A stretch of DNA of 63,989 nucleotides, filler included, from Stramenopiles sp. TOSAG23-6 (taxonomy: Eukaryota), in assembly GCA_900128565.1 (NCBI GenBank). It is 5 parts of 5 records of this genome, joined end to end, with 100 filler letters (N's around TTAATTAATTAA, not from the genome) between each part and the next. Parts side by side here need not be neighbours in the genome. Positions count along the whole stretch, not along the records: positions 25,772 to 38,532 come from LT636190.1; 4 more parts are not named here. The stretch is one strand, 5' to 3'. Every line of letters starts with the position of its first letter. The stretch's first letter is position 1. The position numbers and the translations under genes are program-made. This document shows positions 1-59,026 of this stretch, piece after piece. The notes under the pieces were generated by a model, which was given only the letters and a program-made list of their open reading frames with translations, did no database searches and was not told the DNA's origin.

Positions 1-56
1 TTTTGTACCTAACAATTTTTTTTAGATTTTTTTTGAAATATTTTTCCAAAATACAG

Positions 57-10541: not shown

Positions 10542-11696
10542 TTGAATACTCGTTAAAGTTAGGGTTTTGTTTAATGTTCTCGACATTTTCCCACTCTTCT
10601 TGAGACAAATTCCTTTCTTCTACATTGTTTGCAGTCCTAAATGAGATAGGATCTGATGTGTGTTGACTTTCTTTTTTGCTTGCAGTCCTAAATGAGATAG
10701 CATCTGACGTGTGTTGACTTGCTTTAATATAAAAATTCTTAACCACAGCCCAGCTTCCGATAAGGAGGGGCGATATAAAGATGACTGATAGTACGATGCG
10801 TACCAGCCAAGGAGCTTTCTTCTGAGATTCAGAATCGTCCATTATCATTTTATATACATTGAGGACTAAAGGTGTGAAAAGGGTTACAGTAACTGCGCAT
10901 GTACTGTGAATAATATTTCAAAAAAAAATCTTAGGTACAAAATTTCGTATGAAAAAAATATAAATTTGAAATTCATGATGAAAAACATACATCTCATCCA
11001 GGTTGACATTCGTGAAAAATAGGGTTGAAACTTCGGGAAGCAAAATGGTAAATTGATGGCTAAGGGTAGTGTCACGGTTCCAAAAATATGATAATATAGG
11101 AGACTATTTTCTCCAGTGGTTGCATTCCAACCGAAATAAAATGAGCACAAAATATATAAAAAGTGAACGACGAACGAGACGTTGACGGAAATCCCGATTG
11201 CAACAGCAGCAACAAATCTATGTTGATCAATTGGTGTATATCCTGGTTGAATTATAGCAAGTTGATGGGGAGTTAGACCGTATCGATGTGCCCAAGTCTG
11301 AATTCTTGCCTTAATCTTTGGGTCTCTGAAAATGACGTCACTTAGGTAAGCTGTGTTATACTTTTCTTGGATAAGTTGAGCAAGCAATCGTCCATCCGTA
11401 TCCGTGTTAAGCATAATATGGGCTACTGCACATGGAACATCAAAGCGATCTATAAATACCGGATTTCTTTTCCCTGTTACGACGTCGTTAACTGGGAAAA
11501 TGCCTTTATTGATGTACTTTTTTAAAAAAAAGATTACTCGACTATCGGCAGTCGTGAGCAGTTGTAGCACGTACGTGAGATGAGTTTTAATTCTCGAAGT
11601 TTCTGAATCCCAAGCTGTTGGCTCTCGATGGCGTAAAGTGACAAATGAAGAATTTCCTATTATCGCATTGATGGGATCTATGCATTTGGGTTGCAT
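10525..11696 (-). CDS. Membrane protein with a bacterial-like uncharacterised N-terminal domain; intron 10899-10990 (GT-AT)
   Basis: Intron removal joins ORF 10884-11696 to ORF 10525-10848 in frame (WMR|CAVTVTLF...YKMIMDDSE). Several hydrophobic segments. Confidence 0.65.
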
Positions 11697-12109: not shown

Positions 12110-12731
12110 ATGAAGGACGTGTTTTCGTATTTCGTGTCCTGGATTGCATCAATTGGTTTCATTGTTACCTTTCTCATTATGGACCTTTTTTTAGCAGAAG
12201 TGAAAGTGAGTGTCAGCCATAAAAACATTAATAGTGTTCTCAATCTTTCTTGTTTGAGGATGGCGCTAGTATTACAGCCATATTTAGTTGATAGTCTTTT
12301 TGTTTTTTGGTTCTGTAGCATATGGTTTGTACTCTGTCTACATCGTGAGTTTGATTCGCTTGGCAAATCGTCCTCATTTAAGTCCTGGGGTTTCGTTGGT
12401 GTTGGTATAGCACTCTTTCAACTTTCAACGGACTCGGCCATTTTCCACCTGAAAGATGTATGTTTTCATTTTTTTTTGCCTATTTTTTTTTCGTACGAAA
12501 TTTTGTACCTAACGATTTTTTTTGAAATATTTTTTCACAATACATGATGTTCTCTATGGAGTTATAGTTTTTGTGTTTGGTTTATTTCTGTGGATTTTAT
12601 TTCTAATTTTATCCGTCACAACATCTAGTTATGACATTCGTGAAAATGTTCGGAGTTTTGATGTATTTAAAAAAATTATGAGAGAAAACTTTGTACTTTC
12701 TTCTGAAGTTGGTATAAAAAAGTCATTTGCA
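12110..12731 (+). CDS. Partial multi-pass membrane protein, cut by the scaffold end; intron 12458-12545 (GT-AT)
   Basis: Intron removal joins ORFs 12110 and 12522 in frame (HLKD|DVLYGVIVFVFGLFLWILFLIL). The 3' boundary is uncertain. Confidence 0.5.
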
Positions 12732-21864: not shown

Positions 21865-21934
21865 TAAATATCAAGTTTTATGAAAATTTCTTTATATCGT
21901 GTGCTTCATCAGCATTATATACTGATATATATAA

Positions 21935-24022: not shown

Positions 24023-24213
24023 TGTAGGCAAACCTTGTCGTGTGGCTTGTAGATAATATATATACACGGGTACTGTTTATACAGAAATTGCTGAAATAGT
24101 AACTAGATAAGGTAGTGTATGTTGGAAACTCGATAAGAAGAGTCAGTTTATGATGACATGAACGGCTTGGCTCTGGTACCGGGTAACGACCGAAACCGGT
24201 AAATTTAGGCCAG

Positions 24214-25771: not shown

Positions 25772-25865
25772 GAAAAATATTTCAAAAAAAAAAAACTAAA
25801 ATTTGTTAGGTACAAAATTTCGTACGAAAAAAATAAATTTGAAATTGAAAAAAAATAAAACATAC

Positions 25866-27833
25866 ATGACATCTAAAGTATCTTCAAGGATATCGAAAGT
25901 TTCATCGAAATTTTCACCAAATTTTAAGGCAGATGTTCGAAGCACCTTTAGGAGCATTGACGGCGAAGAAACTCCAGCCATTACAGCTGCCTCTTCACGA
26001 TTCAATATTGTAAAAATATATGTTTTTTTTGGTTTTGGTGTAAAAACAATTGTTAGTTACTAACATTTTGTCCAAAAAAAAAAAAAATTCGAAATTTGAA
26101 ATAAAAAAATCTTTTTTGTGTTTTGTGTAGGAAAAAAAATTTCAGAAGAAAACAAAATGATAAAAACGTACAAGAGCCTCTGTCGCACCTCCAGCACAAC
26201 TGATATTACCGGACCTCATTCCACCTGCTGCACCAGCTAACCCTTTCAACCATTGATTTAATCTATTTACTAAAACAACACAATTTTGACACTCTGCCTT
26301 TGTGACATTTTTTTTTGTTACATCGTCTCGTCGCAGCAATCGAAGATATCGAGCAGCAGCGTACATATATTGTGAAAAAATATTTTTTTTTTTTGAAATT
26401 TTTTTGTTTTTTTTGTTTTTTTGTTTTTTTGTTAGGTACAAAAAATTTTTTACAAAAAAAAAAAAATAAATTTGAAATTGGAAAAAAATAAAATACCAAT
26501 GAAGCTCTCTATAAGACGGAAACCTAAAAATTTGAGGAAGTTTTGTTCTATCTTCTAAATCTGAAATTGCTAATTGTTTGGGGAGTGCAAAAGCATGAAT
26601 ATAGTTACCTCCAAATACTAAAGAATCGGCTGGTGTAAATGTAGTTTGAAGAAATATTTTTTTTTGATTTGTTTTGGTTAGGTACAAAATTTCGTATGAA
26701 AAAAAAATTTTTTTGATTTGTTTTGGTTAGGTACAAAATTTCGTATGAAAAAAAAAATTGAAAAAAAAAATTGAAAAAAAAATCATGAAAACGTACATAC
26801 TGCATGAATCCAACCCGAAGGTAGAAATAATGTATTACCAACAGAGACATTTACTCGAAAACAATCATCACATAAATCTGCAAAAAATATCTCAGATTGT
26901 TTTTCATTTTGAACCCATTCTTCATACTTTTTGAGATTACTTTTTGTTGGTGGAATCATCAAAAATATTTTCTTTCCTCGAATGATACTGTGTTTGTACA
27001 ACAATATTTCAAAATTTTATTTTTTTTGTTAGCCTTATTTCCAAAAAAAAAACTTAAATTTGTTAGGTACGAAATTTCGTACAAAAAAAAATGAAATTGA
27101 AAAAAACGTACTGATACCACACACTAGAGCCTCCAAAGTCAATATGAAAATCAGTATAACTACCTGCAACTGACATTAAACAATATTTTTGTACTCTGGG
27201 AAAGTCACCTGAATGTATACGAGATTTTGGCCACGATGTGTACAAAAAACTAATATCACGAACGACACTTGGAGGTTCAATCAGTTGGCCCAGGGGAGAA
27301 TTTGATACTTCTAGAGATATAACATTAAGAATTCGATCACGTTTTTTTGAAGGGCAAAAGTCTCCATAATAAGAAGCCCAATCACCCAAAGTCCATCCTG
27401 TCAACTGTCTTTGACTTGCCACTTCAATGACCTCTACAGAGACAGCTCTACCCACTGCCTTTTCTACATCCTTCACAGAAAAAGGTTTATTTGGAACTCG
27501 AAGACCCAGTCCTTGTTTGCGTTTTACAATGAAAGGTTCAGCAAATGCATTTGTTGAAGAAATCCATTGTTTTGTGAGAGTGGATCCGTCATGAAGCTGA
27601 CGAACTGAATGTTTTGAAAAAGAACTTTCATTTAACAATATTTTACGAAATTTTTCAGAGTCAAAAATGGGAATACCACCATCAAGGTCTGTATAATTCA
27701 TTTTACCTTTGCTTTTAAGCCTTGCACTTCGTACAGGCCGATGGGTGTCAATAGTGGGTAACACACTAGACACAGATGTCGGTGGAGTATCTTGTGGGGG
27801 TGGCTTCGATTTCATCCATTCAGGCATAGACAT
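25866..27833 (-). CDS. JmjC histone demethylase, KDM2/KDM7/JHD1-like, 3' truncated; introns 26988-27111 (GT-AG), 26639-26796 (GT-AT), 26365-26496 (GT-AT), 26003-26171 (GT-TG) and one running from 25865 to the scaffold edge
   Basis: LNVISLEVS, PRVQKYCLMSVAGSYTDFHIDFGGSSVWY|HIIRGKKIF, LPSGWIHAV|FTPADSLVFGGNYIH and FRFPSYRELH|WYAA are all restored on intron removal. Confidence 0.9.
26365..26496 (-). other. GT-AT intron that fixes the splice register
   Basis: No AG anywhere in the intron; GT...AT removal gives the conserved HWYAA. Confidence 0.85.
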
Positions 27834-28085
27834 TATAACACTACTAATAATATTAACTTTATGACTTCTCAAAAATTATTTTTCTAGTACGTACCCTAGC
27901 CTACGTATTTTACCACGACTACAAACAAACTTTTTTCGCAAAATTGACTCATGACTCATGATGAGGCTAACCCTAACCCTAGTCTAGTCTAGCCGGAGGA
28001 TTTCAAGATTCAATTTTCAAAAGGCCTTTTCGCGTTTCCGATTAAATTTTTCTCTTACCTTTTTCGTTCTCATGTTCAACTAGTA

Positions 28086-30535
28086 ATGCGACGCTTTCAA
28101 GTTATAATAGTACTGCTTTCAGTTGCAACTATTAGCACAATAAATGCATTGAATGAAACAGCTTCGCCTATTTTGACTTCAAGAGAAGAAAAAAAACACT
28201 GGGAAGCTATCGCTGACAACTTATTTTTGGAAAGTCTACCTTCGGATTCTTTACATGAAGAGTTGCAGCGTGCAGCAACTACGTCATCTTTTGCTCTTCG
28301 AATCTTTGTCGATCGGATTTTATCCCAACGGCCTTTGTTGAAAGTGTCAGATCTTGCACATAATTTGCAGACAGCAACCACCGGCTGTGCTGGTCCATCA
28401 AACGAAGAAATAAAGACACATTCCCGATATTTGTGGGAAAGTGGTGATTTGAGTGAATTGAATATGGAAATTTTATATACACAAGCCAGAGAGTGGCCAT
28501 TTTGCGCAGCGCTACAAAATGATATTGCGGCGTTTGAACTTCGTTCTCAAAATTTCAAAGAAGCAGCCAAACGTTTATTACTTGCACTTCGGCTCTTACC
28601 GGATGGAACAAAAGGTAAAACTTACATTAAAAATATGTATCTTCTAATAGATAACCTTGAAGTCACTGTGAAGCAAAACCCAGCTCTTTGTAACAAATTG
28701 GTTGGCGATGGTATATATATCTTTAAAGCTTTCTCACATTTTTTTTTGAGCCGTCGTGAATTTTCAAAAGTTGTGTCAATACAAAAGAGAATTGATTCTT
28801 TTTATTGTACGTTCAAATTCGAATTAGTTTTTCTTCGCGGAAAAATCAATTTGAAATTATATCCAAAGAGCTTTTTTCATAAATTTTGAATATGACATAT
28901 TTTTTCACAATACATGTATAGGTGTTGACGGTCAAAAACGATCTTCGGGGACGTGCGCTAGTCCAAATGGGCAGAGACATTCAACTAATTTTTCTGATTC
29001 AGTTTCAACATTTCGACAAAAAAATATTTTGGATCAAAAATATATAAAAACGAATTTGACAACATTGACTGAAGAAAATAATAAACAACAAAATGATAGT
29101 TGTAAGACACAAGATAAAGAAATATGCAGAAATGTATGGAAAGAAAGTGATATCATGAAACTTCGAAGTCGAAGTCTGAAATGCCCAGTCATTAATTTCT
29201 CTGAAATTAATTCAATGGAATTTTATCACAAATACGTAGAAGGAAAAGATGGTTTTGGAACTCCTGTTGTTCTTCGAGGTGCAATAAACCATTGGCCTCT
29301 ATTTCATCTGGCATTGGATTCGAAAAGAGTAGAAAAAAATGAAAAAAATGAAGAAAAAATTGAAAACAATAAAATAAAAAATAAAAAAAATGAAAAAAAT
29401 GAAAAAAATAAAGAAGAAAGAAAACGTGTCGCTGCAAAACGTCTGTTACATTGGATGAGGGATAATTGGGGTGCGTCGTGGGTCAAAGTTAGTGTTGCTC
29501 CTGGAGGTAAGTTTGATTCTGTAGAACCATGGAATATGTACGTTTTCATCATCAATTTCAAATTTATTTTTGGTACGAAATTTTGTACCTAAACATTTTT
29601 TTTTTTTTTGACATTTATGGTCATTTATGGTTTCATCATTCATTTCAATTTTTCAATTTTTTTTTTTTCATACAAAGTTTTGTACCTGATGATTTTTTTT
29701 TTGTTTTTCATAATACATGTGGCAGAGAAAAGATGGTTCAAAGTGGACGAGTGAAAACAAAAAAGGAAGCTCTGGTGTTCTTGCTCTCCCTGCACAAACA
29801 TGCTCTTCTTATGAAACATTTGTAGAATTACTCATCAAAAGGGAGCATAAAAATAATATATCACATCATCAAAGTCCTATTTCATCTGAAAAAAAACAAG
29901 AAAACAAAAAAAACAAAAAAAACAAAAAAAACAAAAAAAACAAAAATTTAAATTTTCATTCATTTTATGATAAAAATCCAAGTTTTTATTTACAATATTT
30001 TGACACGTTGAGATTAGGAGGAGAAACATGTATCTTTTATTTTTTTTTTTTTGTATGAATTTTTTTTTCATAAAAATTTTGTACCTAACAAAAAACATTT
30101 TGAAATATTTTTCCAAAATACATTTCTCTCGGAATTAGCCCCTGAACTTAAAATTATTCGAAATTTAGGATCTACACCAGGATTGGTGTTAGATGCAACA
30201 AATATTTGGCTTGGTGAAGGGTGTACAGATGGCAAAATACATGTACATTTTAATCATTTATTTTTTTTTCATACAAAATTTTGTACTTGGCCATTTTTGT
30301 AACAACAAAATCAATTTTTTTTTAAGAATTTTTTCACATTACATTTTGATCCACACGAAAACATTTTAGGTCAAGTAGTCGGTCGAAAACTTGCTGTTTT
30401 GTATCACCCAGGAGCATCAGCTCAATTATATCATACAAGAAGTACAGGAGATGAAAAATATATACGTTTTCAAAATTATTTGTATTTTTTTTTTTTTTTT
30501 GGTATGAAATTTTTTACCTAACATTTTTTAAAACC

Positions 30536-30566
<31 letters not shown>

Positions 30567-31081
30567 ATAATTTTTCACAATATATTTATTTCAGGCTTGG
30601 TTAAACTATGAATATCCAAATACTTTTACAAGAATAGATGATTTTAAAAAGCTTCCTGTCACTAGTCATTTCTCCCCAGTTAACATTTTGAACCCTGATT
30701 ATGAAGCTCATCCTGATTATCGTGATGCTACTGCCATTTTGTGTGATATACAACCAGGGGATGCATGTATGTTTTTTTTTTTTTTTTTACAAAAAAATCG
30801 AATTTTTTTTTTTTTTATAATTTTTTTTTGAAATATTTTTCCAAAATACTTTATTCATCCCGTCGTTTTGGTGGCATGAAGTTTTTTCATGGCCACAATC
30901 TATTCAAGTGAACTTAGAAGATGAATCTAAAATCCATAATATACTAAACAAAAGTGAGATTCAAAAGAACGATTGTCCGATAGGTCATATAAAAAACAAT
31001 CCGAATGAAGCTGACGATGCAGGTTACAATTTTGCTGTGAATTTTTGGTATAAACCGTCTAAATCTTCAGTCTCATGTACG

Positions 31082-31119
<38 letters not shown>

Positions 31120-31140
31120 TAATTTTTTACCTAAAAAATT

Positions 31141-31177
<37 letters not shown>

Positions 31178-31319
31178 CGTAATTTTGTACCTAACAAATT
31201 TCAATTTTTTTTTTGATTTTTTTTTTGATTTTTTTCACAATACATGTAATCATGACAATCCACTCGATAATAGACAATGTGAAATATCAGGAACACCATT
31301 ATTTCCTACGATGAGGTAA
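28086..31319 (+). CDS. Signal-peptide, TPR-like plus JmjC (cupin_8-type) 2-oxoglutarate oxygenase; introns 28807-28915, 29538-29718, 30030-30123, 30243-30344, 30462-30585, 30767-30851, 31077-31245
   Basis: The spliced frame restores PVVLRGAINHWP, NIWLG...KIH|FDPHENILGQVVGRK, FSPVN..NPDYEAHP, IQPGDA|LFIPSFWWHEV and AVNFWY. Confidence 0.85.
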
Positions 31320-31639
31320 ATATATATATATAATAAACAAATCATAGTTAAATATATATGTAATAAACAAATAATAGAATTCAAAAAAAATAACAATGAA
31401 ACAAAAATGTTACAACAATGTCATTTAAAAGAATTTTGTATAATCAGTTTTCAAATATTGATTTATTCTTATCATTAATTTTTCACCTAAATTTGCTTTG
31501 TACCAAATTTCATACCAAATTTTGTATGTAACGAAAATAAATATCAAATTCAGAATTTCTTTTTGAAATATTGTTTCATTATTCAAGTATACTACCAACA
31601 ACACAATGATATCTCTACTCTTTCATAATTTATGACTAC

Positions 31640-33695
31640 TCAACTTGTGAATCCTGTTTGCATCGAATATGTATTTTGGAAAAATATTTCAAAAAAAAAA
31701 TCGTTAGGTACAAAATTACGTACGAAAATATTTTCGAATTTGAAAAAAAATAAAACATACATTTAAATTCTCCATTTCCTGGGGGTAAAGTCGCTAATTT
31801 TATATCTCCAATAATAGTTTGATTTGCAATACTTTTAGCCGAATCAGGAAGACCATGTATTTTGGAAAAATATTTCAAAAAAAACCCCTCAAATTTGTTA
31901 GGTACAAAATTTCGTATGAAAAAAAAATTCAATTTCAAATTGAAAAAAAATAAATAAAACATACATCCCATAAAACATCGAGGTAGTGTAACATTTCAGT
32001 AAAACCACGTGGCATTACATTTATTTGAGTAGATGCCATTGTATACAAGGAATGAAGCAGTAAACGAGACCCTAACGCAACCTTAATCGCTGCGTCATTC
32101 AAGTATTTTAAAAAATATTTGAAAAAAAAAAAAAAAAATTGTTAGGTACGAAATTTCGTACGAAAAAAAAAACTTCGAATTTGAAAAAAAATAAAACATA
32201 CAAAGCAACTGTTGAGGAATTTTTCCGGATTCCCATCTCTCGAATTTTTTGTTGCTGAGATAGAATAAGTCTCAACTCGTCATACTGAGCCCGAGCTTTA
32301 CTTAGTTCTTCCTGTGCATCTTTTGTCGTAGTCTCATTTTGCTGCTGTGAATGGCTCGCAAAACTTGTGTTGTTACCGGGAGTATTAGGGTTAGGGTTAC
32401 TTTTTGGCTCAACCGCGACATTCATTTTAATACCAGTCGTGCTTTTCTGTGGTAAAGTTTCAATACTAGTACCATCCTGAGATGCTGCATGATTCATTTG
32501 TGTTGGAGAGTAATTATGTAGTGTCCTTTATGATGAAACAAAATGTCAAAAAAAAAAAATTGTTAGGTACAGATCTTTTTTTGGGAAAAATAATTCGTTC
32601 TTACATTGATAAATAAATTAATAAATTCATGATGGAAATGTACATGGCTGGTTGTTGTGAGGGTGCTTGCGACATCTGTGACATCTGGAGAAACCCTGTT
32701 GGTGACATTGATACACTTGCTGAAGGAGATGAATTTTGTCGTTGCTGCTGCATCTGTGTTTGTTGTGCCATTACAGGTGACATCTGTGTTTGTTGTGCCA
32801 TTACAGGGGACATCATTTTATTCATTAGATCAACTTGAGCACTGTTCATCGGGTTCATCAACCCACCACCACCATTAACTCTATTCATCAATTGAGCAAT
32901 ATTCTGCATTTTGTGTTGCTGTTGCTGCATCTGTTGATAATATGTTCCAGCTGTAGGATTATTTCGCATTGCTTGGCGTTGGAAAATATTTTGGTCTCCA
33001 TTGGAAAGCTGAACGAGGTGATTTTGCGGTGGTAAAGTAGCATTTACAGTGACTGTTGAAGCTGATCTTGTTGGTGTTGGGGTTGGAGATGGACCCCTCC
33101 GAATTCTCTTACGTCTTGTGGTTGGGCGCCGTCCGCTATTGAATCGTCCGTCTTTGTGTGGTACACATTCTGTGCCCGCTGCGATACAAGATTTACATTG
33201 GGTAGCGCCTTCTTCGAATATGCATTTTTGATGACGTTTATGGCAGCGCTCACATGTTCTGGTACTACCTTTTCTCTTCTTTTTTGTACTCATGTTTCCC
33301 TGTTTTCCCGTGGTAATATTATTTACGATGATGTTTCCGCTTTGGTTGCTCGCGCAAGTACTCGCGCAGGCATTTACGCGGGTGCACGTCTTCTTTTCCG
33401 CGCTGTTGTTCGCGCTGCTTTCCTGTAATTTCTGTATTTCGGATTCCGTTACTTTGAGCGAATTCACTAATACGTGTTTTATATCATCGCCGTTGACTAC
33501 GGCACTCACGTTTAGAGCCGGGATAGGATTGCTGGTGGCGACGACAGGGAGAGGAGTAATAGTCGTATTAGGGGAATCTGAATCCACTTTTACATGTACC
33601 ACGGGGATTAAATTATTCCGCGGGGTGTTTGCAGATGCCTCGTTTTCTTTCATAGGACTTATAATATCATTTTCATCATGTACAATAACTTCCAT
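31640..33695 (-). CDS. Zn(II)2Cys6 binuclear-cluster transcription factor-like protein with a Q-rich region; introns 32526-32643, 32101-32201, 31855-31964, 31669-31760
   Basis: CERCHKRHQKCIFEEGATQCKSCIAAGTEC = C-x2-C-x6-C-x8-C-x2-C-x6-C, preceded by basic KKKRK; the frame is continuous after intron removal. Confidence 0.75.
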
Positions 33696-34007
33696 GATTT
33701 CAAGATGTGATTTCAAAATGATCTAGATAGATCAGTAATGCTGTATTAATTGTGCGTCTATCTTGCTTGCTCAAGGAGTCGCTCAAGGAGGAGAAAAAAA
33801 GTAAAGCACCGAAATATCCGATTGCTATTAGGTACAAACTTTTGTACGAAATATTGTGAGTCAGCATAAACCAGTAAAAATATAAGACTTGGTGAGAGAC
33901 ACGAAAACCAAGGAAAACAAACGCAAAACAAACGACGACACAAAAAAATATTTTTTACAGCTTTTTTACACTCTCTTTCTTTTTTTTTACTTATCAGTCC
34001 TTGTACA

Positions 34008-35248
34008 ATGAGATGTTTGAAGCATCTTACAATATTGTTATCATTTTTAGCGTGTCTCTCGACATTTGCAAAGCTATCAAAAGTAGTGACTGATGTGATG
34101 TGTCTAAACAATGTATATAAAACCTGTAATATTCGAGTCGCTGTAATATATGGTCTTGCAAAAGGGCAAAACGAAGATGCATTTGAGCAAGGTTTTCTTG
34201 CGGCAATGAGTGAGGTCTCCACTAGATATTCTTCAACTTGGATTAATCTGTTTAAATACGAAGGGAAGCAAATAGCAGACGTACTTGAAGTATTAACAGG
34301 TTTTGATTTATTACTTGTCAAAAGTAATTGGTACTGGAGTGTAGACACTTTTGTGAGGCAATATCTCAGAGGGGTAATGTGGGATACAATTCCCAAGATA
34401 CTTTTGATTTCAGGAAGTGCTTCCCCACCGCCTGGGTCTGAGATTTTATTTTATAATGTGTTACTCTATGAAACGGAATGGTATAAACCCGAAATAGAAA
34501 GACATCCTAGAATAGTGCATGCATTTGGAATCGATACAAGAAAAATGAAACCCCTACCTGTATGTTTAATTTTTTTCAAATTCTATTTTTTTTTCGTACG
34601 AAATTTTGTACCTAACAAATTTTTTAGATTTTTTTTTGAAATATTTTTCCAAAATACCTGAATTTATGGCCAAACACGGTAATATAAAAAAGTGGGACTA
34701 TTTATCTGCTGGAATGCTTGTAGGGTATAAAAGATGGCACAAACTTGCTCATGAACGTAAAGGTCGACGACTTCTCGTAGGTCGTGCTGATCAGCCTGAA
34801 AGTGAAGCGATTGTAAAAGAGTTAGAAGATGCGGGTATATGTTTTATTTTTGTTTCAATTTCGAATTTATTTTTCGTACCAAATTTTGTACCTAACGAAT
34901 TTTTTTTTTTTTTTCGGTAAAAAAAAAAATATATTTTTCACAATACTTGTTGTAGTTCTTCCAGAAGTTTCGTACGAAAAATTATGCGAGTTGATTAATC
35001 TATCACATCATGTATATGTACCCGCAGCCCTACATGGTGGGGGAGAAAGATTAGTTCTTGAAGCACGTGCAGTTGGGACTGATGTTATTGTCGAGAGTGA
35101 TAACCCAAAGTTGATTGGAATGGCAAACGGACCTATATACTCACATGATTATTATGCTGTACAAATATTAAGAGGTATAAAAATGTCCCTTGGTGTAAAT
35201 ATAAGCCCTATAACAGATACAAATGATAAGAATACCAAAGAGTTATAA
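34008..35248 (+). CDS. GT-B (GT4-like) glycosyltransferase with an N-terminal signal/anchor; introns 34560-34659 (GT-CT) and 34837-34948 (AT-TT)
   Basis: GYKRW..L and YVPAALHGGGERLVLEARAVG motifs; three ORFs fuse in frame (KPLP|EFMAKH; EDAG|VVVLPEV). Confidence 0.7.
34560..34659 (+). other. Type example of the non-AG intron family (GT...CT)
   Basis: GTATGTTT...TTCGTACGAAATTTTGTACCTAAC...TTGAAATATTTTTCCAAAATAC-CT; removal restores the glycosyltransferase frame. Confidence 0.8.
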
Positions 35249-35336
35249 AGATATGTAAATTTTAGCATTCAATATACAAACTCTAACCTGAGTCTATTAA
35301 ACAATGTCTCAACCAAAGGTATATAGAAGTTTGGTC

Positions 35337-35888
35337 TCACCTTCTTGAGAATTTCGACCTTTTCTTCCTTCTTTGTCCGTCACGTTTGACACGATCACCA
35401 AAGAAGTGTTTCTTCTGGAATGCTAACACTGCTTCAGGAATACCATCATTAGATGTACAAGAGTCTATGTCCGAAGACAACTTCTTGGAAGCTACAACAA
35501 GGTTGAAGTTACCCCGGCGAACTTTGAGATCTCCTGCCTCAAATTTCTTTCTTTTTTTCTTTTGCTTCCTACTCAGGTCTTGTTCGCCTTCATCATCTGA
35601 ATCAAAATATATCCGATTCTGATTAGATGTTTCATTGTCTACTATGTTTTGCTTTTCTGATTCTTTCTCTTGTACTTCCTGAACACTTTCCAGGAGACCC
35701 GTCGGGAGGGCATCCGCGTCAGAACTAACTCGGCGACGTTGACGAGTACGCTTCCTTGTGCTACTCCCTGATGCTAGTTTTTGTGACTTAATTTTTTCCA
35801 ACGCTGAACTACGGGAAGAAACATTACTTACCTCTTGTGGAGCTTCATCATCTGAATCACTGCTACTATATATAATAGGTTCGTCCAT
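35337..35888 (-). CDS. Small charged nucleolar-type protein (possibly NOL7/Bud21-like)
   Basis: SDDEAPQEVS motif and basic clusters; the family call is weak. Confidence 0.55.
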   Translation of the reverse strand: MDEPIIYSSSDSDDEAPQEVSNVSSRSSALEKIKSQKLASGSSTRKRTRQRRRVSSDADALPTGLLESVQEVQEKESEKQNIVDNETSNQNRIYFDSDDEGEQDLSRKQKKKRKKFEAGDLKVRRGNFNLVVASKKLSSDIDSCTSNDGIPEAVLAFQKKHFFGDRVKRDGQRRKKRSKFSRR

Positions 35889-36149
35889 TCTATTTTATAA
35901 TATGAAACTAAGCTAGACCTGTGTAGTACCTACTGGCAGCTATACGACTGTGGTACCTTTGATGTTGATCGAACTGACTTCACACAGGAGCATTTTTCCA
36001 TTTTTCGTGTTCGTGTTCCAGGTCAAAATCAAATCAATCACACACGCACTCTTTTTACCAGTAGGAGGGAGGCTTATAAATTATAATATAGTAGTCTAGC
36101 TAGAAAATTTTAGTCTCTTGTAATTAGTTATGCCATTCAGTAAAACACG

Positions 36150-38407
36150 ATGAAGATATTTGGATTGACCGCATCGTTTGTATTGCTAGTTTTTTGTATC
36201 TTAAATCAGTTATTTGCCAATGCGAATCAAAACTTTGATTCTTCAAGGGTTGCAAATGTCTTTATTGTACAGCTTCATGAATATTTGTTGCCCTCCAAGC
36301 TTACTGCTTTAATTGAGACTATTATTGGGTCTCCAATAGATGCAACAAATACCAGCCTACAAAATTTGAATTCAAACGATACTAGTGATGTAGTCAAAGG
36401 ATGGAAGATGGTTGAACGGCACAATAAAGTATTTCGTGAGGAAATCCCAACTGACTTTGCAGTAATTCATTGTAGCGGTAACACAAAAGAAGTTTCTGCT
36501 ATTATCAAAATCATTAAAAACTCAAGTGTTGTACGCAATGTTATACCCGAGCGCCGATACTTTGCGTCTTCAAAAGTTGCCGATATAGGGAAACAATTTA
36601 AACATTCACAGTGTCCAACTAACTCAAGTGAAAGTGAAAGTTTTTCTTCCAACACTCATGATAGTTACACATACTTTAATCCCAATATTCCCAATACAAA
36701 TCAACAAACCAGTAACCAAAATATGAATACGCGAAAGTTGCTGTCAAGTAGCTTAGGAAATTCTCGGTCTTCTGTTGATCCATTACATATTGGTAAAAGT
36801 CCCCCATACGTACCACATCTTTCCTATTATGAAAGACGATCAATGTATGTTTTTACTTTTTTGAATTTTTTATCTAAATTTTTTTCGTACGAAATTTTGT
36901 ACCTAACAAAAAAAAATCAAATTTCAAAAAAAAAAATATATTTTTTCAACAATACATGGTCGAGGAATTTGGAGCTCCTCTGTTGTGGAAGAATAATCTC
37001 ACGGGAAGTGGGGTCAAAGTTGGAGTGTTAGACACTGGAATTCGCGAAAAACATCCACATATTCTTCATCTAAAGGAACGTAGTAACTGGACGTACCAAA
37101 ACTCCGAGGCAGATGGAGTAGGACATGGTACGTTTTGCGCTGGTATGATTTCTAGCTCGTATCCAAAATGTGCTGGTTTTGCACCTAACTCTGAAATTTA
37201 CACATTTAAAGTGTTTACGGACAACCAAGCTTCGTTTTCGTCATGGTTTTTAGACGCTCTCAATTATGTCCTTTTTAAGGAAATTGAATTAGTGAATCTG
37301 AGCATTGGTGGACCAGATTGGCGAGATGCCCCATTTATTGATAAAATACGGGAATTGGGTGGACATGGTATCGTGTTTGTATCTGCTATTGGTAATGATG
37401 GTCCATTATATGGCACTTTAATGAACCCTGCGGATCATATGGAAGTTATTGGGGTCGGTGGAATAACCAATACTGGAGAAATTGCACAATTTTCATCAAG
37501 AGGTGCAACAGTTCATGAATTGCCGTATGGGTTTGGTAGGGTTAAACCAGATATTGTAGTATATGCTGAAGGACTTCTTGGTTCTACTATCTCTGGAGAT
37601 TGTCAAACTCTGAGTGGTACTTCAGTAGCTGCACCTGTAGTTACTGGTGCTCTTGCATTGTTGATGAGTATCCCTCGTTCAAATAAGTCAATTCCAATAA
37701 ATCCAATAAAATTTGATTTATCTCTGGATACATCAAATGATAAAAAAATAAAAAGTGAGAACCCTAACCCTAATAATGACAGAAATAACCCTAACCCTAA
37801 TGACAGAAATAAAGGAATAAAAAACAAACTTCGTTGGAATCCTGGAATAATGAAACAAGCTTTAATACATTCAGCAAAACCGATAAAAGGGATGTATGTT
37901 TTATTTTTTTTTTTTTACAAAAAAAACGATTTTTTTTTTCGTACGAAATTTCGTACCTAACAAATTTAAGTTTTTTTTTTGAAATATTTTTCCAAAATAC
38001 AAAAGTATTTTTGAACAAGGTGCAGGTGTGATGAATCTTCAAGGTGCCGCTGATTTTCTACAAACATATCCTCCAGAAGGCATGTACGTTTTTAACATCG
38101 AATGGTATACTTTTTTTTTTCGTACGAAATTTCGTACCTAACGAATATTTTTTACGAAAAAAAAAAAAAAAAAAAAAAAAAATATTTTTTTTCACAGTAC
38201 ATGGCAACATTATTTCCATCTTCACTTGACTTCACTGATTGTCCCTATATGAGTCCATTTTGTGAACAACCTACGTATTATTCTGCAATGCCAATTGTCG
38301 CAAATGTAACTATATTAAATGGAATGGGCTCTCATGGCTACATTGAAAAACAACCTATTTGGAAAGGGGGTGAAAATGGTGAACATATAAAAGTACAAAG
38401 TTCTTAT
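36150..38407 (+). CDS. MBTPS1: Site-1 protease (SKI-1/MBTPS1 subtilase), 3' truncated; introns 36845-36957, 37894-38002, 38084-38202 and one from 38408 to the scaffold end
   Basis: VGVLDTG, GHGTFCAG, NLSIGGPD, SAIGNDGPLYGTL.NPAD, ELPYGFGRVKPDIV, LSGTSVAAPVV, FEQGAG, DCPYM.PFC.QP.YY and NVTILNGMG; RKLL processing site. Confidence 0.92.
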
Positions 38408-38532
38408 GTATGTTTTATTTTTTTTTTTTTTTACCGAAAAAAAAAAAAATCGATTTTTTTTTCTTTTTTTTTTTTCGTACGAAATTTTGTACCTAACAAA
38501 TTTTTTTTTTTTGGTAAAAAAAATTTTGAAAT

Positions 38533-38632: not shown

Positions 38633-38755
38633 CGTATGTAATAATAGGAAAAAATTAAAAAACTTAAAATTGTTAGGTACAAAATTTCGTACAAAAAAAA
38701 AACAAAAAAAAAAAAAATTTTAGGAAAAAAATTGAAAAAAAATAAAACATACATG

Positions 38756-40764: not shown

Positions 40765-41177
40765 AACTTTTAATCTTTTATAAAATGATGAATATATGTT
40801 GCATATTATTTCATTATTTACTCTTACTCACTTGTATACATGGTATGCGTAGAAGTAATCTAGTAGTAGTTGGTACTACAGAAATAGTACTGCTACCGTA
40901 GTGTAGTCGTACTACGTACTACCCGTACTAATGCCAAATCTAAATATAGCAGAGTGAAAAAAAAACAACTGATGATGGTGTTGGATTCGGATTGCTTTGG
41001 CAGGTTTGTTCACAATATAATTTGGGAGACGAGGAGACACCAAAAAAACCAAAAAGAAAGACAAAACGAAAAGACAAAAACTTTGATTTGAAGTAGTATA
41101 GGTTGATACGTAGATTTGAATTCTCTTATAAAACTATTCATTATATTGATTGATCCTGCCTTTAAAAGGTGACTACA

Positions 41178-45024: not shown

Positions 45025-45557
45025 GCATATAAATTTTATCCAAATCATAATTTTGCAATTGTTGAAGTATTTAATGATAGTCCTACTAGTGGCTCATCTA
45101 TAGATGTATCTAAAAGACCTTGTATTCGATGGACAGGTTATAGTGATAACAAACCTGTTTTGTCTTGGGAAAGCTGTGCTCCATTTGTTAACGAAGGGCA
45201 GGTATGTTTTTCATCATGAATTTTAAATATAATGTCCAAAAAAAAAATTCCAAAAAAATTTCCAAATTTCAAAAAAAAAAAATTTTGCAATTTTTTTTCA
45301 CAATAAATGTAACTGAAACAAAACAAACTCCAGAAGAAGCCATCGTTACCATGGGAACACACTATCCAGATTGTACAATAGATTTTTTCCCGGATTATAT
45401 CTTAGCGCTACTTATCACATTTTTTGTATTATTTTTAACAATTTGTGTAATGCCAATTGTTCGATGTATCCGAAAGAAAAATAGTTCCGCTAATAAACAT
45501 AATAATCATACTATGACTGATGAGGGAATTTCGGAAATGCAGAAAGATAAAAAATGA
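45025..45557 (+). CDS. 3' exons of a single-pass membrane protein; intron 45202-45308 (GT-AT); 5' part missing at the palindrome centre
   Basis: Open frame AYKFYPNH...NEGQ|VTETKQ... followed by the TM segment YILALLITFFVLFLTICVMPIV. Confidence 0.55.
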
Positions 45558-49196: not shown

Positions 49197-51257
49197 ATGA
49201 CTGACGAAGCAGCCCTAGAGACTTGGTATGAACTTCATGACGAAAAGCTTTTCGAAATTAGCCAACAACAAAAGTTTCGAGAGCGGTTACGCAACTTTCC
49301 CAGTAGACACGTCGTTTCAATGCAGAAGCTACAGCCCTATATTCGTGGTTTTCTTTGTAGGCGAGATAGTGTACAACAAATATTTATACAACAAGCCCAG
49401 GATAGGCAACGCCGTGTTTCTTTGGAGATTGATGTTTTACGTAAAAATATTGGAAAAAAATTAACTTTTACTGGAAAGAAACGAAACTTTCTTCGCCTCT
49501 TTCGAAATACATCCACCAGTGAGTCTGATACATTACATTTTCCACAATTTATACATGTTTTAGAAGTGTGTCTTTTTGGTGTTGGTGACACAAATTCCAA
49601 AAATAGCCAATGTAAAACTGAGTTTTCTTTCCGTGAAAAAAAAAATAGCCAATGTAAAACTGAATTTTCTTTCCGCGAAAAAAAGCTTCTTTTTCTTTGT
49701 TTAGCTTCAGAAGGTTTAGAATTAGTACACATAACAGAGTTCATTACATTTATATTTGGACCTCAATTTGCCATGGAAATTTTAGAAAACGAATCAATAC
49801 AAAGAGAAAATGAAAAATGGAATGAAACTCATAAAAAGAANNNNNNNNNNNNNNNNNNNNNNNNNNNNNNNNNNNNNNNNNNNNNNNNNNNNNNNNNNNN
49901 NNNNNNNNNNNNNNNNNNNNNNNNNNNNNNNNNNNNNNNNNNNNNNNNNNNNNNNNNNNNNNNNNNNNNNNNNNNNNNNNNNNNNNNNNNNNNNNNNNNN
50001 NNNNNNNNNNNNNNNNNNNNNNNNNNNNNNNNNNNNNTAACCCTAATACAAACCCTAACCCTAATATAGTCAAAGTGACTGAGAAACAGACTACTATTGT
50101 AACAAATACAAATGAGAGATTAGAATATATAAAAACAGTGAATTATACAAAAAGTTTGGCTTCATTGATGAATATTGATTATATATACATAGACAGTGAA
50201 AAACAAAACAAACAAAACAAACAAAACCAAATAGATCAACAAAACAAACAAAACCAAATAGATCAACAAAACAAACAAAACAAACAAAAAGAAGTCTTTA
50301 TATACTCAATTAAATCTAATAAAGATGTTCAACAACAACAACATAAATTTTCTTTGAATAGTAGAGAGAAAGATTCGCCAAACCAAATAGATCAAACATA
50401 TTCTGTAACTAAAAATGCTACAAAAACACAATCAAACATTATCAAGAAGAATAATACGCCTATACATGCTAAAAATCCTAAAAATCCTAATTATCCTAAT
50501 GAAAAAAGACATTCAATGGTAAACCCTAAAAACCCTAAAAACCCTAAAAGCAATCATAAAAAACTGCCAAATTATTCATTAATGGCGTCTACTACCGCTA
50601 GTAGGAGTAGAAAGCTAGCAGTTACAACAAAACAACAACAAAAACAACAACAAAAACAACAACAACAACAAAGCAAACAACGGCCTAAAACAGCACCAAG
50701 CAAAATTTTACCGCGATTTATTTCTGGTATGCATTTCATGCAAACAACATCATGTACAAATCGTCGTATTCGTTGTAATACAATAGATTCAACTTTATTT
50801 AAAAACAAAAAAAAGATTATAGATAAAATCAGTAATAATGCAAGAATACTTGAAGAAACAATTCAATCAAAATTACGTAAAATAAAACCTACATTATTGG
50901 ACATAAAGACATCTCAAATAGGTAAAGAAGTTAGTGGACGTGCCTACGTGTATATTTTATTTTTTTTTCAATTTTTTTTTTGTCTATATTTTTTTTTTCG
51001 TACGAAATTTTGTACCTAACAAATTTTTCTAAAATTTTTTTTGAAATATTTTTCCAAAATACATGTATGGTGGCGTAGCTGCAGATGAAGTACGGCATAG
51101 GAATATTCTCGAACATTTGGAAAAGAATAAACGTAACCCTAACCCCAACCAAAAATCATATATAGCACGAAATCCTTGGAAGCCAACAGGAGGGACACGA
51201 AATATACATTTTGATCAATGTAATGAGGAAGTGGGGTTAACTAGACAAGAATTACAT
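49197..51257 (+). CDS. IQ-motif protein with low-complexity Q/N/K tracts, 3' truncated; introns 50950-51064 and 51258-51374 (both GT-AT)
   Basis: MQKLQPYIRGFLCRR IQ motif; the frame joins GRAY|VYGGVAADEV. An N gap lies at 49841-50037. Confidence 0.6.
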
Positions 51258-51377
51258 GTATGTTTTATTTTTTTTCAATTTTTTTCCTAAAATTTTTTTT
51301 TTTTTTGTTTTTTTTTTGTACGAAATTTTGTACCTAACAATTTTAAGTTTTTTAATTTTTTCCTATTATTACATACG

Positions 51378-52404: not shown

Positions 52405-54758
52405 TGTATATAGGGTGGAAAAATGTAGAAGAAAGAACAGCACCTTCCCCAACTTCTTCAAGACAAAATCTTTTTTCAGTGAAGGGTGACATGTTTGATA
52501 AGGTTTTTAGTAGTGTGAGAAAACGAATTCAGAATGGTACAATTAGTAAACAATCAACTAACAGTATTACAAATGTTGTATTAGACAAATCAGTGAGTAA
52601 ATCTGTGGATATTGATAAATCGTATGAAATTTCAGGTGTAGAGATTCAATCAATACTTAATGGTTCTTATTTTCCATTTCGATATCGGGAAAAAGATAAA
52701 ATAATTCCGCCAGATCTAAAAGTAGAAGATCGTAGGGCATTGATTTTTGCAATGAAAATGCAAGCAAACCATAGAGATAGAAGTCGGAGAATCCAGAGAG
52801 AGAGAGAAAAACAATTAGAAGCGTTGAAAGAACGAGATAAAAAAAATGAGTACCAAAAAAAACTCCGAGAAGAAAAAGTTCAAAAACTAAAAGACATAAA
52901 ACGGCAAAAACTTTTAGACCAAAGGAAGATGAGGCTTAACCGTAAAGCACAACGTGATGCATTATTAGTAGCATCAGGCCTCAAAGAATTGAAAACTCCT
53001 TTTAAAAGAAAAACTGCGATGATTGGTCTTAAAGTACTTCAAGAATTTCAAACGTCGTTAGGGTTAGGGTTAGGCTCATATAAAACAATGAAAGGCTCAG
53101 AAAATCTCCTGTTAAAAAATGCAGAAGCTCCTCTCTTTTTACAAATGGAACATCGATATGATGAAGATTTTTTAATGCCTGAATTGCATCGAAGAAAAGA
53201 GAAATTACAAAATTTACATGTACGTTTCTTTTATTAGGGTTAGGTTTTTTTTTAACTTTTTATGACTATTTGTTTCTATTATATTTTATTGATTTTTTTT
53301 AAACTTTTTGTAAATAATTGTGGACCGAATTAACAAAATCAAATGTACTACAAAACAATATTTTCCTAAAATACATCAATTACGAGGAAAAACAGCAGGA
53401 CGAGATTTAAGAGATAAAATTCAAAAAGATGGAAAATATTACAAATTAGCCTTACAGAAATCCAAAATGGAATTGAAAAAGAGAAAATTAGAACGAATTG
53501 AGGCATTTAATAAGAAAAAACCACCGAAACCTCCACGACGGCTAACACGATTATATCAAATGGAGAAGAAGAGGAAAGCGTTCGTTTTTATAATGAATTT
53601 TAAATTATTTTTTTTTTTTCATAGAAAATTTAATACCTAACAATGTTTTACTAAAAAACAATATTTTTCACAATACGTTCTTGACCGTAAAAAGCAAGAG
53701 GAAAAGACAAAAAGACTGAAGATTGCTCGTGAGTATTCAAAGAAAGTAAGATTGAAACATAAACCTAAAAAATGTGCATCAAAAGTTGCAGAAATTTATC
53801 ACAGAAAGCAGGAATTACTAAATAGAAACAAAAAGCGAATATCTTCAAATTCAAATACAAAAACTTCTGATTTGAAACAATCGCGTGGATTTTCAAATAT
53901 ACCAAAGTATCGTAATATTATAGAAAGAAAGAAAAAAGATAAAATTTTAACTTTAAAAGATCTAAAAGAAGCACAAGAATTGCAGAAAACAAAGTTAGAA
54001 TCAAATCAATTGGATCTTTTACAAAAGAAAGAGAGAGAACGACAAGCCAGAATCGTTCAGAAAGCTTTATATAAAACGGAGCGTATTAAAAGATTACAAT
54101 CAAAAACGAGGTNTCCGTTTGAGCTTGATACTGATCAACTTGATGATGTAACTGAAACCTATATCGACGTTATGAAAGCTAAAATGGCAATGATCAAAGC
54201 AAAACTATCAAAATTGAAGGCTCTAGAGGAAGCAAAGGATACAGAAAGCAAGTCAATACAGAGTTCATTACATGTCTTGAGTAAATATCCTCGATTTAGT
54301 ACGTTTTAAAGATTAATTTCACTTTATTTTTTCACCTTGAAAATTTTGTACCTAACAAATTTCGAATGTAAAACTCTTTTCTCTGTACATGGGGTAATGT
54401 TGACGTTAATGGTAGACAATTTATGGTAAATGCTAGACAAATAAAACGTAAAGTTTTTGTGACTGTAGGAACTTCAGAGAGTTCTTCAGAGACAAAAAAT
54501 GGCATTAGGTATACAATAGAGAAACAACTTCAATCACCTGAAAATTTAAAAATGTCCGAGTTGAAATCTACCATTATTGGCATGTTGAAAGATAGAGACA
54601 CATCGCAAGAAGATGAAATCATTGAAGATGTTAGAGACACATCACAAGAAGAATTTTCAAATGAAATCATTGAAGATCTTAGAGACACATCACAAGAAGA
54701 ATTTTCAAATGAAATCATTGAAGATGTTAGTGACACATCACAAAACGTTTCAGGATAA
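52405..54758 (+). CDS. Basic coiled-coil protein with acidic C-terminal repeats; introns 53220-53376 (GT-AT), 53580-53678 (GT-GT), 54299-54390 (GT-AT)
   Basis: Four ORFs fuse in frame (NLH|QLRGK; KRK|ALDRKK; PRF|RGNVDVNGRQFMVNAR). C-terminal RDTSQEEFSNEIIED repeats. Start codon uncertain. Confidence 0.7.
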
Positions 54759-58098: not shown

Positions 58099-59026
58099 AT
58101 GAAATATTTGACGCCTCTACTGTCTAAAGTGGATATTATATGTTTATTGCAATATTTTGGAAGCTTTCTGTTTCTTTTTGTGTCGCTTAAAGTTTTAATT
58201 CACTTTACTAATAATCGCCTTGCACGAAACAGCTCACTTGGAGCCTACCTGGTTTTATGTTGTATGATTAACGGTTTCCAAGCATATCGTGGATGTATAT
58301 ACTATTATGAGGTACATTATTCTATTGGTTCGATGGATATTTATGCTACAAGTGAGGCGAGGGCAATGCTTCAAATTCCACTATTAAAACCTCTTCTATA
58401 TGCTGGATTAGCATATACCATAATAGGACTAATGTTGGATATTATAATTGGTCCTCCTGTGTTATCTTTCGAAATGGTATTACACCATATAGCCATGTTT
58501 GCTGCAATCTTCATATCTATCACATTTCCTGTAGTTCAATACCATGCTCCCTACTTTCTAGGTGTTGCTGAAATAAGTACAGTTCCGTTAAATGTAATGA
58601 ATATTTTCAAATATTTTCCAAGTATGAAGTTAGCATACCCAAGAGCATATAAGATATCTCGAATACTCTTTGCAATTTTATTTATACTTTTACGTGTTGT
58701 GTTTTGGGCATTTCATATTTCTCAATGGGCATCAGATTATATGACCTGTACGTTTTCATCATTAAGCTCAACTTTACTTTTTATCGAAAAATTTGTAGCT
58801 AATGATTTTTTTTCTCTACGATTTTTTTCTTCACAATACATACTTTCGCATAACGAGTGTAAAAGATAATACAAATGTTTCTTATGGAATGGCTATAGGT
58901 TTGTCCTTGGGATGTTTTTTGACACTCCTGCAATTGTTCTGGGGAGTTTTAGTCACTAAAGGCCTATATAGAGCTCTATTTGGAAATACTCGGGACAATA
59001 TTGAAAAAACAATTAAAGCAACATGA
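58099..59026 (+). CDS. TLC-domain (TRAM/LAG1/CLN8) membrane protein; intron 58748-58841 (GT-AT)
   Basis: MVLHH, AEISTVPLN, FAILFILLRV and LQLFW; the frame joins YMT|YFRITSV. Confidence 0.82.

Follow-up and report, generated by a model that had tools for sequence, protein, structure and literature searches.

The closest described systems are the introners of Micromonas pusilla and Aureococcus, DNA transposons resembling miniature inverted-repeat transposable elements (MITEs) that have turned into introns (PMC11282704; PMC7789003). Related cases include: Fritillaria borealis, with MITE-derived introns among which AG-AC and AG-AT ends are prevalent (PMC11282704); Amoebophrya (Syndiniales), with introners and non-canonical introns (PMC7789003); Polarella, whose transposon-derived introns also have non-canonical ends and border duplications (PMC11282704; PMC7789003); and the euglenids, in whose nonconventional introns positions +4 to +6 pair with positions -6 to -8 (PMC11282704). 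In animals, GT-AT introns are rare, with four U12-type cases in human, three in mouse, and a conserved U2-type case in DGCR2 (PMC1557818). Here, a window of 63,989 nt from Stramenopiles sp. TOSAG23-6 (GenBank assembly GCA_900128565.1) was analyzed; the window is the whole stretch of DNA and consists of six scaffolds with N or linker runs between them. It contained a family of short related inserts that interrupt unrelated genes, mostly begin with GT, and mostly lack a 3' AG. Judged from sequence, this family is most probably (at roughly 0.68) a set of transposon-derived spliceosomal introns, i.e., introners of a compact, AT-rich marine protist.

The inserts resemble the Micromonas and Aureococcus introners in being near-identical short introns in unrelated genes of a marine picoeukaryote, and, probably, in having terminal inverted repeats and a short target-site duplication. 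One splice site is brought in by the element in both cases, and what is removed would be the element together with one of the two duplicated copies. M. pusilla draws its 3' AG from a 3-nt duplication and the end is canonical, whereas here the putative duplication is 2 nt, mostly AT, and provides no AG; unlike the M. pusilla introners, the element here also carries an explicit branch box. With Fritillaria the family would share a transposon origin, inverted repeats, a border duplication, and a 3' end derived from the duplicated target (an exonic TAC in Fritillaria), as well as terminal AT or AC and removal by a tolerant spliceosome. In that animal, however, the deviation is chiefly at the 5' end (AG for GT), whereas in the protist studied here GTAYGT is intact and only the 3' end deviates. 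Amoebophrya likewise has repeated introns with direct repeats of a few nucleotides over the boundaries and with inverted repeats, and classical annotation failed there. It has no dominant terminal dinucleotide, its repeats are 3–5 nt and its inverted repeats 8–20 nt long, and U1 was not found; the present family shows one dominant GT..AT pattern and conventional donor and branch signals. The euglenid introns share non-GT-AG borders, duplication-like junction repeats, and the same 2-nt pairing offset as the +1 to +4 with -3 to -6 pairing found here, but they lack donor, branch, and pyrimidine-tract signals, and non-classical removal is suspected; here the signals are present and the helix is 4 bp. 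Animal GT-AT introns have the same terminal dinucleotides and can be spliced productively. They are isolated conserved introns, mostly with U12 consensus, while here GT-AT introns would be the majority of a mobile family without U12-type donor or spacing.

The original prediction had treated GT-AT as an unrecognized type of intron. Comparable systems and rare GT-AT introns are in print, but no paper on this family was found. The source name of a near-identical database protein (P0121), "GSMAST32.ASY1.ANO1.24.1 assembled CDS," suggests that the host is a MAST-3-type (marine stramenopile) organism. A literature search, with supplements outside its reach, found no paper on introners in MAST-3 and none on this family under Incisomonas or stramenopile introners. 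In a paper on single-cell genomes from MAST lineages (PMC5778133) the words "splice" and "canonical" were absent.

The window was scanned with Rfam and for family motifs, 36 open frames and exons were compared with Pfam, and complete copies were curated by the combination of donor, central box, and 3' box. In total, 31 complete copies of 85–209 nt were found in about 15 unrelated genes on five of the six scaffolds. At least 35 complete inserts in about 15 genes had been predicted; the family, its location, and the number of genes stood, while the count fell to 31. All 31 copies lay in the coding sense of their host frames and scaffold 2 (12887–25671) contained no complete copy, both as originally described. 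The described layout was also recovered: GTAYGTTTT, then a central box TTCGTACGAAATTTYGTACCTAAC (26 of 31 copies), then T/A tracts, then a 3' box TTTTYCAMAATAY. Within the window the central box alone had 58 matches on both strands at up to two mismatches, some of them by chance. Beyond the complete set, two relatives had diverged and ended in AG, and four copies were truncated at scaffold ends or N runs. Scaffold ends repeatedly fell within copies, as expected of a high-copy repeat. Because scaffold 4 (38633–51377) is palindromic, its features are doubled, and the copies at 45202 and 50950 were counted once despite their mirror images. One further copy, ending in ..CACAATAC AT, was found in an independent metagenome contig (L001) with a 23-nt family motif; the motif had no match in the genome contigs and none in the viral contigs searched.

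Canonical signals predicted from the sequence were present in most copies, including a GT donor of GTAYGT type (29 of 31) and a CTAAC-type branch box (26 of 31). The first two bases of the two remaining copies were AT (30462) and TT (1776). Of the first 27 copies, 22 had G at position +5 and one (30030) had C. The branch-like box TACCTAAC, which resembles that of yeast, adjoined a GTACGAAATTTCGTAC palindrome in 26 copies and lay 29–67 nt from the 3' end (median 41.5 nt), with one copy at 155 nt. The 3' box ended in YAC in 24 of the 31 copies and its last base was not C in the other seven. At the position two nucleotides past this box (box + 2), the last two bases were AT in 23 copies, TT in three, and CT, AA, GT, AG, and TG in one each. 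The earlier tally (AT 25, AG 3, TT 3, and one each of CT, TG, AA, and GT) was close to this recount, apart from AT and AG. With AG at the frame-restoring position in one copy of 31, and an AG 9 nt downstream used by another, the family as a whole does not follow the canonical 3' AG rule. The original view of normal donor and branch signals thus holds for most copies; two have no GT and five have no branch box.

Precise removal was assessed with a frame test, in which the longest open frame up to the donor was taken and the one of three downstream frames that continues past box + 2 was identified. The cut at box + 2 joined long frames clearly in 27 of the 31 copies. Three copies were uninformative (31077, 31760, and 63765), having short terminal exons or two open frames, and one failed (34835), its frame being restored by an AG at +9; the statement that the cut restores the frame in each case therefore held for most copies rather than for all. 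If each of the 28 decisive cases had a chance of 1/3, the 27 successes would have a probability of about 2e-12 (calculated by hand). Exon lengths also chained correctly across seven consecutive introns of the Cupin_8 gene. Exact removal was matched by homologues at six junctions. At 30767–30851 the Cupin_8 profile (Pfam profile coordinates) ran from position 183 to 221 before the insert and from 223 to 250 after it, with the split codon at 222; searches of single small Cupin_8 exons against PDB gave chance-level matches only. In the site-1-protease gene, junctions 36845 and 37894 were ungapped against 25 homologues of at least 450 aa, taken from 120 hits listed. In the KDM2-like gene, the junctions at 26639–26796 (HAV/FTPADSLVFGG) and 26365–26496 (ELHW/YAAARYL) were both colinear with P0122 and with KDM2A in PDB. 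A search with the first KDM2-like exon retrieved both P0121 and P0122. P0122 is a relative with 62% identity that lacks the inserts, and a gap of 44 residues in it corresponds to the insert at 26365–26496. Retention of the inserts leads to a stop within 3–62 codons in 29 of the 31 copies; the introns at 26365–26496 and 63667–63765 are open in frame.

An AG end was likewise missing from most inserts, as had been claimed. In 16 of the 31 copies the 30 nt before and after the cut contained no in-frame AG, and 19 of the 26 box-bearing copies had no AG at all between branch box and 3' end. Among the first 27 copies, 10 had an in-frame AG within 20 nt downstream, compared with a chance estimate of about 32%. 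At 37894, two residues precede the motif [MI][FY]EQG in 21 of 22 covering homologues, so that use of the AG at 38005 would delete one of them. At 26796, the AG chosen by the gene model P0121 loses the residues FTPA, which are kept in P0122 and KDM2A, and at 30767–30851 the nearest in-frame AG is 30 nt away. Members and relatives that do end in AG were found at 34835–34955, 63667–63765, 26988–27111, and 32526–32604, so AG remains usable; they suggest that older copies drift to canonical AG ends. Overall, it is well supported by the reading frames and homologues that the inserts must be removed and that most of them cannot end in AG.

The exact register of the cut was a separate matter. In 18 of the 31 copies the two nucleotides before the GT were the same as the last two of the insert: 16 AT/AT pairs, one CT/CT (34560), and one TT/TT (32201). 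Equal flanks mean that GT..AT, TG..CA, and AT..AC readings yield identical mRNA in these copies, so "GT-AT" is there one of three readings and not an observation; read aligners would probably call AT-AC. Registers could be told apart at three junctions. At 26365–26496 the GT register rebuilds TG^G, a Trp codon, giving RELHWYAAARYL where P0122 has RELHWYAAGRYL; this Trp is conserved (CWY in KDM2A and PHF8), and a shift of the register would replace it by Met. A stop arises at 28807 when the register is shifted (NN..AC). At 37894 the GT register encodes Ile, where homologues have V, I, P, or A, and the shifted register encodes Lys, found in none of 22 homologues. The same protein results from both registers at 30767 (GDALFIPSFWWHE either way), 58748, and 26171. 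Constancy of termini was GT in 29 and AT in 23 of the 31 copies under the GT register, against AT in 18 and AC in 24 under the shifted one. The prediction of a GT donor with a cut 2 nt past the box thus agreed with these three junctions and was ambiguous in 18 copies. Where testable, the evidence supports cutting of at least some members as GT..AT and, by parsimony, this reading may extend to the whole family.

Several features were those of a mobile element. The dinucleotide AT, with a background frequency of 9.4%, stood directly before the GT in 18 of the 31 copies. When the flank pairings of the first 27 copies were shuffled 10,000 times, about 1% of the shuffles gave at least the 17 matches observed; seven of the 10 mismatched flank pairs differed at one base only. 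Position -3 was C in 10 of these 27 copies and position +3 was G in 16, and a palindromic c-AT-g target is suggested. The element ends were complementary (GTAY..RTAC): with position i set against -(i+2), 110 of 124 cells paired over the first four pairs, and this pairing of +1 to +4 with -3 to -6 leaves a 2-nt 3' overhang. Covariation in this terminal helix was sought and rejected, the +4/-6 pair giving three C-G combinations versus nine C-A, which is not significant. Known insertion modes were also considered and set aside: duplication of TA as in Tc1/mariner elements (these flanks read AT instead), insertion between A and T as by Helitrons (with which the termini disagree), and an element with AT on both sides as part of the inverted repeat (which would leave two extra nucleotides in the mRNA). 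No empty site was seen in the window. From these sequence features, the family is somewhat more likely than not to be an introner, a small mobile element that is non-autonomous and duplicates 2 bp of its target site, and the 3' terminal dinucleotide is probably the duplicated target site and not an evolved acceptor signal.

In the proposed mechanism, the unit removed would be the element (GTA..TAY) plus 2 nt, and those two nucleotides would be the downstream copy of the 2-bp duplication, mostly AT in a c-AT-g context and in other cases CT or TT. The intron would start with a canonical GT and end with whichever dinucleotide the target supplied, usually AT. Removal would take place at the RNA level by a U2-type spliceosome that recognizes donor and branch normally. 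The weakest step is the next one, in which the second-step cut would be placed relative to the 3' end of the element and not by an AG; its position could depend on the 3' box or on the short helix between the termini (+1 to +4 with -3 to -6), which leaves a 2-nt overhang. A U2-type second step that proceeds without reading the 3' dinucleotide, with a ruler from the 3' box or terminal helix that cuts 2 nt beyond the element, is a tentative proposal to which we give less than even odds. Altogether, the observation behind the original prediction was confirmed and its interpretation was partly supported; that a remodeled spliceosome takes its acceptor from the box is something we infer from the sequence pattern.

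A different account of the same inserts would need no new 3' rule: most copies would be AT-AC introns that start 2 nt upstream (ATGTAYGT) and end at the box (..ATAC), with the misfits decaying or using other sites. AT-AC introns are an established class, following an A(+1)/C(-1) rule in U2-type or U12-type form. The shifted reading is exactly AT..AC in 16 of 31 copies, it gives the same mRNA as GT..AT in the 18 with matching flanks, and the box ends in YAC in 24. This account is nonetheless unlikely. Its "donor" would be CT, TT, TG, GC, GT, TA, AG, or GG in 13 of 31 copies and its last base would not be C in seven, and the three informative junctions give Met in place of the conserved Trp (26365–26496), a stop (28807), and the Lys absent from all 22 homologues (37894). 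The AT-AC register also puts GTAYGT at +3 to +8, out of the pairing register of U1 and U6. For a U12-type version, the 5' splice-site consensus is RTATCCTT, and the family has GTAYGTTTT instead; its CTAAC box lies 29–67 nt (155 nt in one copy) from the 3' end, versus 10–26 nt for the U12 branch box TCCTTAAC. The 3' box itself was tried as a U12 branch site and rejected: TTTCCAAAAT resembles it at 7 of 9 positions by eye, with the branch only 5–7 nt from the cut. No small nuclear RNA (snRNA) was detected in the window at Rfam gathering scores. In favor of a U12 version, U12-type splicing tolerates AT-AN and GT-AT ends (PMC1557818).

It is decidedly improbable that the box + 2 rule is a frame-counting artefact, with the inserts spliced at ordinary GT-AG sites nearby or retained. 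One copy does need a nearby AG (34835), in-frame AGs lie within 20 nt downstream in 10 of the first 27 copies, the gene model P0121 is built in this way, and two inserts are open in frame (26365–26496 and 63667–63765). However, 10 of 27 is near the chance estimate, more than half of the copies (16 of 31) lack any in-frame AG within 30 nt, nearby AGs would delete homologue-supported residues at 37894 and 26796, the Cupin_8 profile is exactly colinear at 30767–30851, where the nearest in-frame AG is 30 nt away, and retention brings an early stop in all but two copies. Removal from DNA, as with the internal eliminated sequences of ciliates or excising MITEs with a 2-bp flanking repeat, would account for the short terminal inverted repeats and for a 2-nt direct repeat of which one copy stays. 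We regard it as very improbable: the sense orientation of 31 of 31 copies is needless for excision (2^-31 if orientation were free, by our own calculation), the inserts carry a consensus donor and branch box and have AG-ending relatives in the same genes, the assembled DNA has inserts in every gene examined, and the long open frames show no alternative code or ciliate-like sign. Scattered N bases and the perfectly palindromic scaffold at 38633–51377 could point to an artefact, either true AG ends that were miscalled or inserts that are amplification chimeras. This is scarcely credible when AT stands at the same position in 23 separate loci, CT, TT, or AA stands elsewhere matching the copy's own upstream flank, and contig L001 independently ends in the same way with AT. 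We know of no error mode that would limit a G-to-T miscall to one position of a repeat.

Several points count against the reading of the family as introners cut in the GT..AT register. The duplication signal is modest (shuffle P of about 0.01) and comes mostly from AT being common on both sides, and the terminal helix has only 4 bp, is common by descent, and shows no significant covariation. To our knowledge, a 2-bp AT duplication fits no transposon superfamily that can be named. No transposase domain was found in 36 open frames or exons searched against Pfam, and no autonomous element was seen in the window. Two copies lack GT (30462 with AT and 1776 with TT) and five lack the CTAAC box; not all copies may be spliced, or not all alike. 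At junction 38084 the protein has two residues (M, A) more than homologues, explained perhaps by a minor genuine insertion or by a cut at a slightly different place. No near-identical spliced form of the site-1-protease exon was found, with no protein above 61% identity among proteins of 171–546 aa. The read-through frame over 26365–26496 likewise had no protein of 106–340 aa at E <= 1e-8, and because this insert is 132 nt long and open in frame, its retention would leave the protein untruncated. The register cannot in principle be decided in 18 of 31 copies, and the evidence for it comes from three junctions only, of which 28807 has an AG alternative and 37894 falls on a variable residue.

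The individual copies are given below with their numbers and strands, and with their ends in the order upstream flank/first bases..3' box and terminal dinucleotide; unless otherwise stated, they rest on the frame test. The window starts within a copy, of which the 3' part remains (1..56, +, ..CCAAAATAC AG). It is followed by copy 31 (153..361, +, TT/GT..TATAT), where the frame is restored and the 68-nt exon to the next copy is compatible with both phases, and by copy 1 (430..608, +, AT/GT..ATAC AT), which has two central boxes. Copy 27 (1684..1776, -, AT/TT..ATAT AT) has no 5' GT and lies in an EF-hand gene. Copy 26 (10899..10990, -, AT/GT..GTAC AT) and copy 2 (12458..12545, +, AT/GT..ATAC AT) precede scaffold 2. 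After scaffold 2, a copy truncated at the scaffold end keeps its 5' part (25772..25865, -, AT/GTATGT), and the KDM2-like JmjC gene follows. This gene contains copy 25 (26003..26171, -, TT/GT..ATAT TG), into which the annotated P0121 ends by reading in; copy 24 (26365..26496, -, TG/GT..ATAT AT), which is register-informative by its homologues P0122 and KDM2A; and copy 23 (26639..26796, -, AT/GT..CTAC AT), which has two central boxes and is colinear with P0122 and KDM2A. A family-derived intron with a diverged 3' end and canonical CA/GT..CAG borders lies at 26988..27111 (-), where SSVW/YHIIRGKK is joined as in P0121 and P0122.

Downstream, copy 3 (28807..28915, +, TT/GT..ATAC AT) has an in-frame AG alternative at 28921, and its NN..AC register leads to a stop. 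Copy 4 (29538..29718, +, AT/GT..ATAC AT), copy 5 (30030..30123, +, AT/GTATCT..ATAC AT), and copy 6 (30243..30344, +, AT/GT..TTAC AT) follow. Copy 7 (30462..30585, +, AT/AT..ATAT AT) has no GT and an in-frame AG alternative at 30594; the Cupin_8 profile leaves its acceptor undecided. Copy 8 (30767..30851, +, AT/GT..ATAC TT) is the one with which the Cupin_8 profile is exactly colinear. Two copies lie near gene ends, where the frame test does not discriminate: copy 9 (31077..31245, +, AT/GT..ATAC AT) and copy 22 (31669..31760, -, AT/GT..ATAC AT). On the minus strand there are further copy 21 (31855..31964, AT/GT..ATAC AT), copy 20 (32101..32201, TT/GT..ATAC TT, flanking repeat TT), and a GT..AG intron with a CTGTACCTAAC branch box inside an old family copy (32526..32604), for which 32640 is an alternative in-frame donor. 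Copy 10 (34560..34659, +, CT/GT..ATAC CT) has the flanking repeat CT, and copy 11 (34835..34955, +, GG/GT..ATAC+9 = TAG) is the sole copy needing an AG. The site-1-protease gene contains copy 12 (36845..36957, +, AT/GT..ATAC AT), whose junction is ungapped against the 25 homologues; it is followed by copy 13 (37894..38002, +, AT/GT..ATAC AA), register-informative by homologues, and copy 14 (38084..38202, +, AT/GT..GTAC AT), with its two residues more than homologues. A 5' part of a copy (38408..38532, +, AT/GTATGT) is cut by the scaffold end.

On the palindromic scaffold, copy 32 (45202..45308, +, AG/GT..ATAA AT) has no CTAAC box and has its mirror at 44653–44759, copy 15 (50950..51064, +, GT/GT..ATAC AT) has an N-interrupted mirror near 39150–39263, and a 5' part cut by the scaffold end (51258..51377, +, AT/GTATGT) has its mirror at 38633–38752. 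The remaining copies are: copy 33 (53220..53376, +, AT/GT..ATAC AT), which carries TTAGGGTTAGG; copy 16 (53580..53678, +, GC/GTTCGT..ATAC GT); copy 29 (54299..54390, +, TA/GT..GTAC AT); copy 17 (58748..58841, +, CT/GT..ATAC AT) in a TLC-domain gene; copy 19 (59887..59977, -, AT/GT..ATAC AT) in an SH3-domain gene; and copy 18 (63667..63765, -, TT/GT..ATAT AG), which has a canonical AG at the +2 position and for which the frame test does not discriminate.

Eukaryotic genes were closely spaced throughout the window, and GC was 0.24–0.44 across it in 2-kb windows, i.e., AT-rich. The genes included a site-1-protease-type subtilase, a KDM2/PHF8-like JmjC demethylase, a second Cupin_8/JmjC protein, teneurin-like EGF proteins, a ULK4-like kinase, KRI1, Nop16, and TLC-domain, SH3, and EF-hand proteins. 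The DNA was also present in seawater metagenomes, and five RNA sequencing runs contained 6–15% of the words of 28501–38500. Scaffold 2 had four long genes without interruption (open over 680, 1472, 637, and 713 codons) and a lone central-box fragment near 25509; the other scaffolds had about 0.6 copies per kb. Scaffold 4 was a perfect palindrome about 44980/44981, with arms at 40173–44980 and 44981–49788 that were 100% complementary with 0 nt between them, and outer arms likewise; it is probably an amplification or assembly chimera. Isolated single N bases at 1086–1115, 22463, and 54113 are a sign of a low-coverage or merged assembly.

Outside the complete copies, a second short repeat related to the family central box, TTTGTACCAAATTTTGTATGTAACGAA, was found at 672–698 (-) and 31509–31535 (+), the latter between two convergent genes; it may be a remnant or a 3'-end signal. 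Interstitial telomere-like (TTAGGG)2 occurred 13 times at up to one mismatch, versus 0.15 expected, and also in contig L001. The 13 positions were: 27971, 32385, 37762, 37789, 38862, 40149, 50053, 51137, 51569, 53058, 53064, 53234, and 56754. Some of these were mirror pairs on the palindromic scaffold, and the contexts included spaces between divergent genes, coding sequence (NPNPN in the site-1 protease), one family intron, and 3' regions. At 29346–29420, 29886–29950, and 37700–37840, A-rich and telomere-like repeats encode low-complexity insertions, rich in K/N or in NPN, within otherwise conserved proteins.

The public gene model P0121 (25866–27840, -) was wrong in at least four places. It reads through 26365–26496, ends inside 26003–26171, and mis-splices 26639–26796 by a false AG with the loss of FTPA; it also splices out 18 residues of true exon (GRAVSVEVIEVASQRQLT) that are retained in P0122. 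From these errors, the family introns evidently went unrecognized when the model was made. Gene finders misread genes that carry such introns, as P0121 shows, and for genomes of this kind the catalogues of genes, the estimates of completeness, and reports of lost genes or pseudogenes may therefore be distorted. According to one introner survey (PMC12130899), families with mainly unfamiliar splice sites were kept only given transcript support; surveys that start from annotated introns and favor familiar splice sites would miss this family.

If the 3' dinucleotide is indeed ignored in the second step, whichever dinucleotide is duplicated from the target at insertion could act as an acceptor, and coding exons would be freely open to the mobile element. 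A 3' splice-site rule that does not depend on AG would then have arisen independently of Fritillaria, Amoebophrya, and the euglenids. The configuration is unusually clean, with canonical donor and branch and the acceptor alone relaxed, and it would isolate the question of how the 3' site is chosen in the second step. If confirmed by RNA, a heterotrophic marine stramenopile would join the few eukaryotes that accept mass-inserted, transposon-derived, non-canonical introns.

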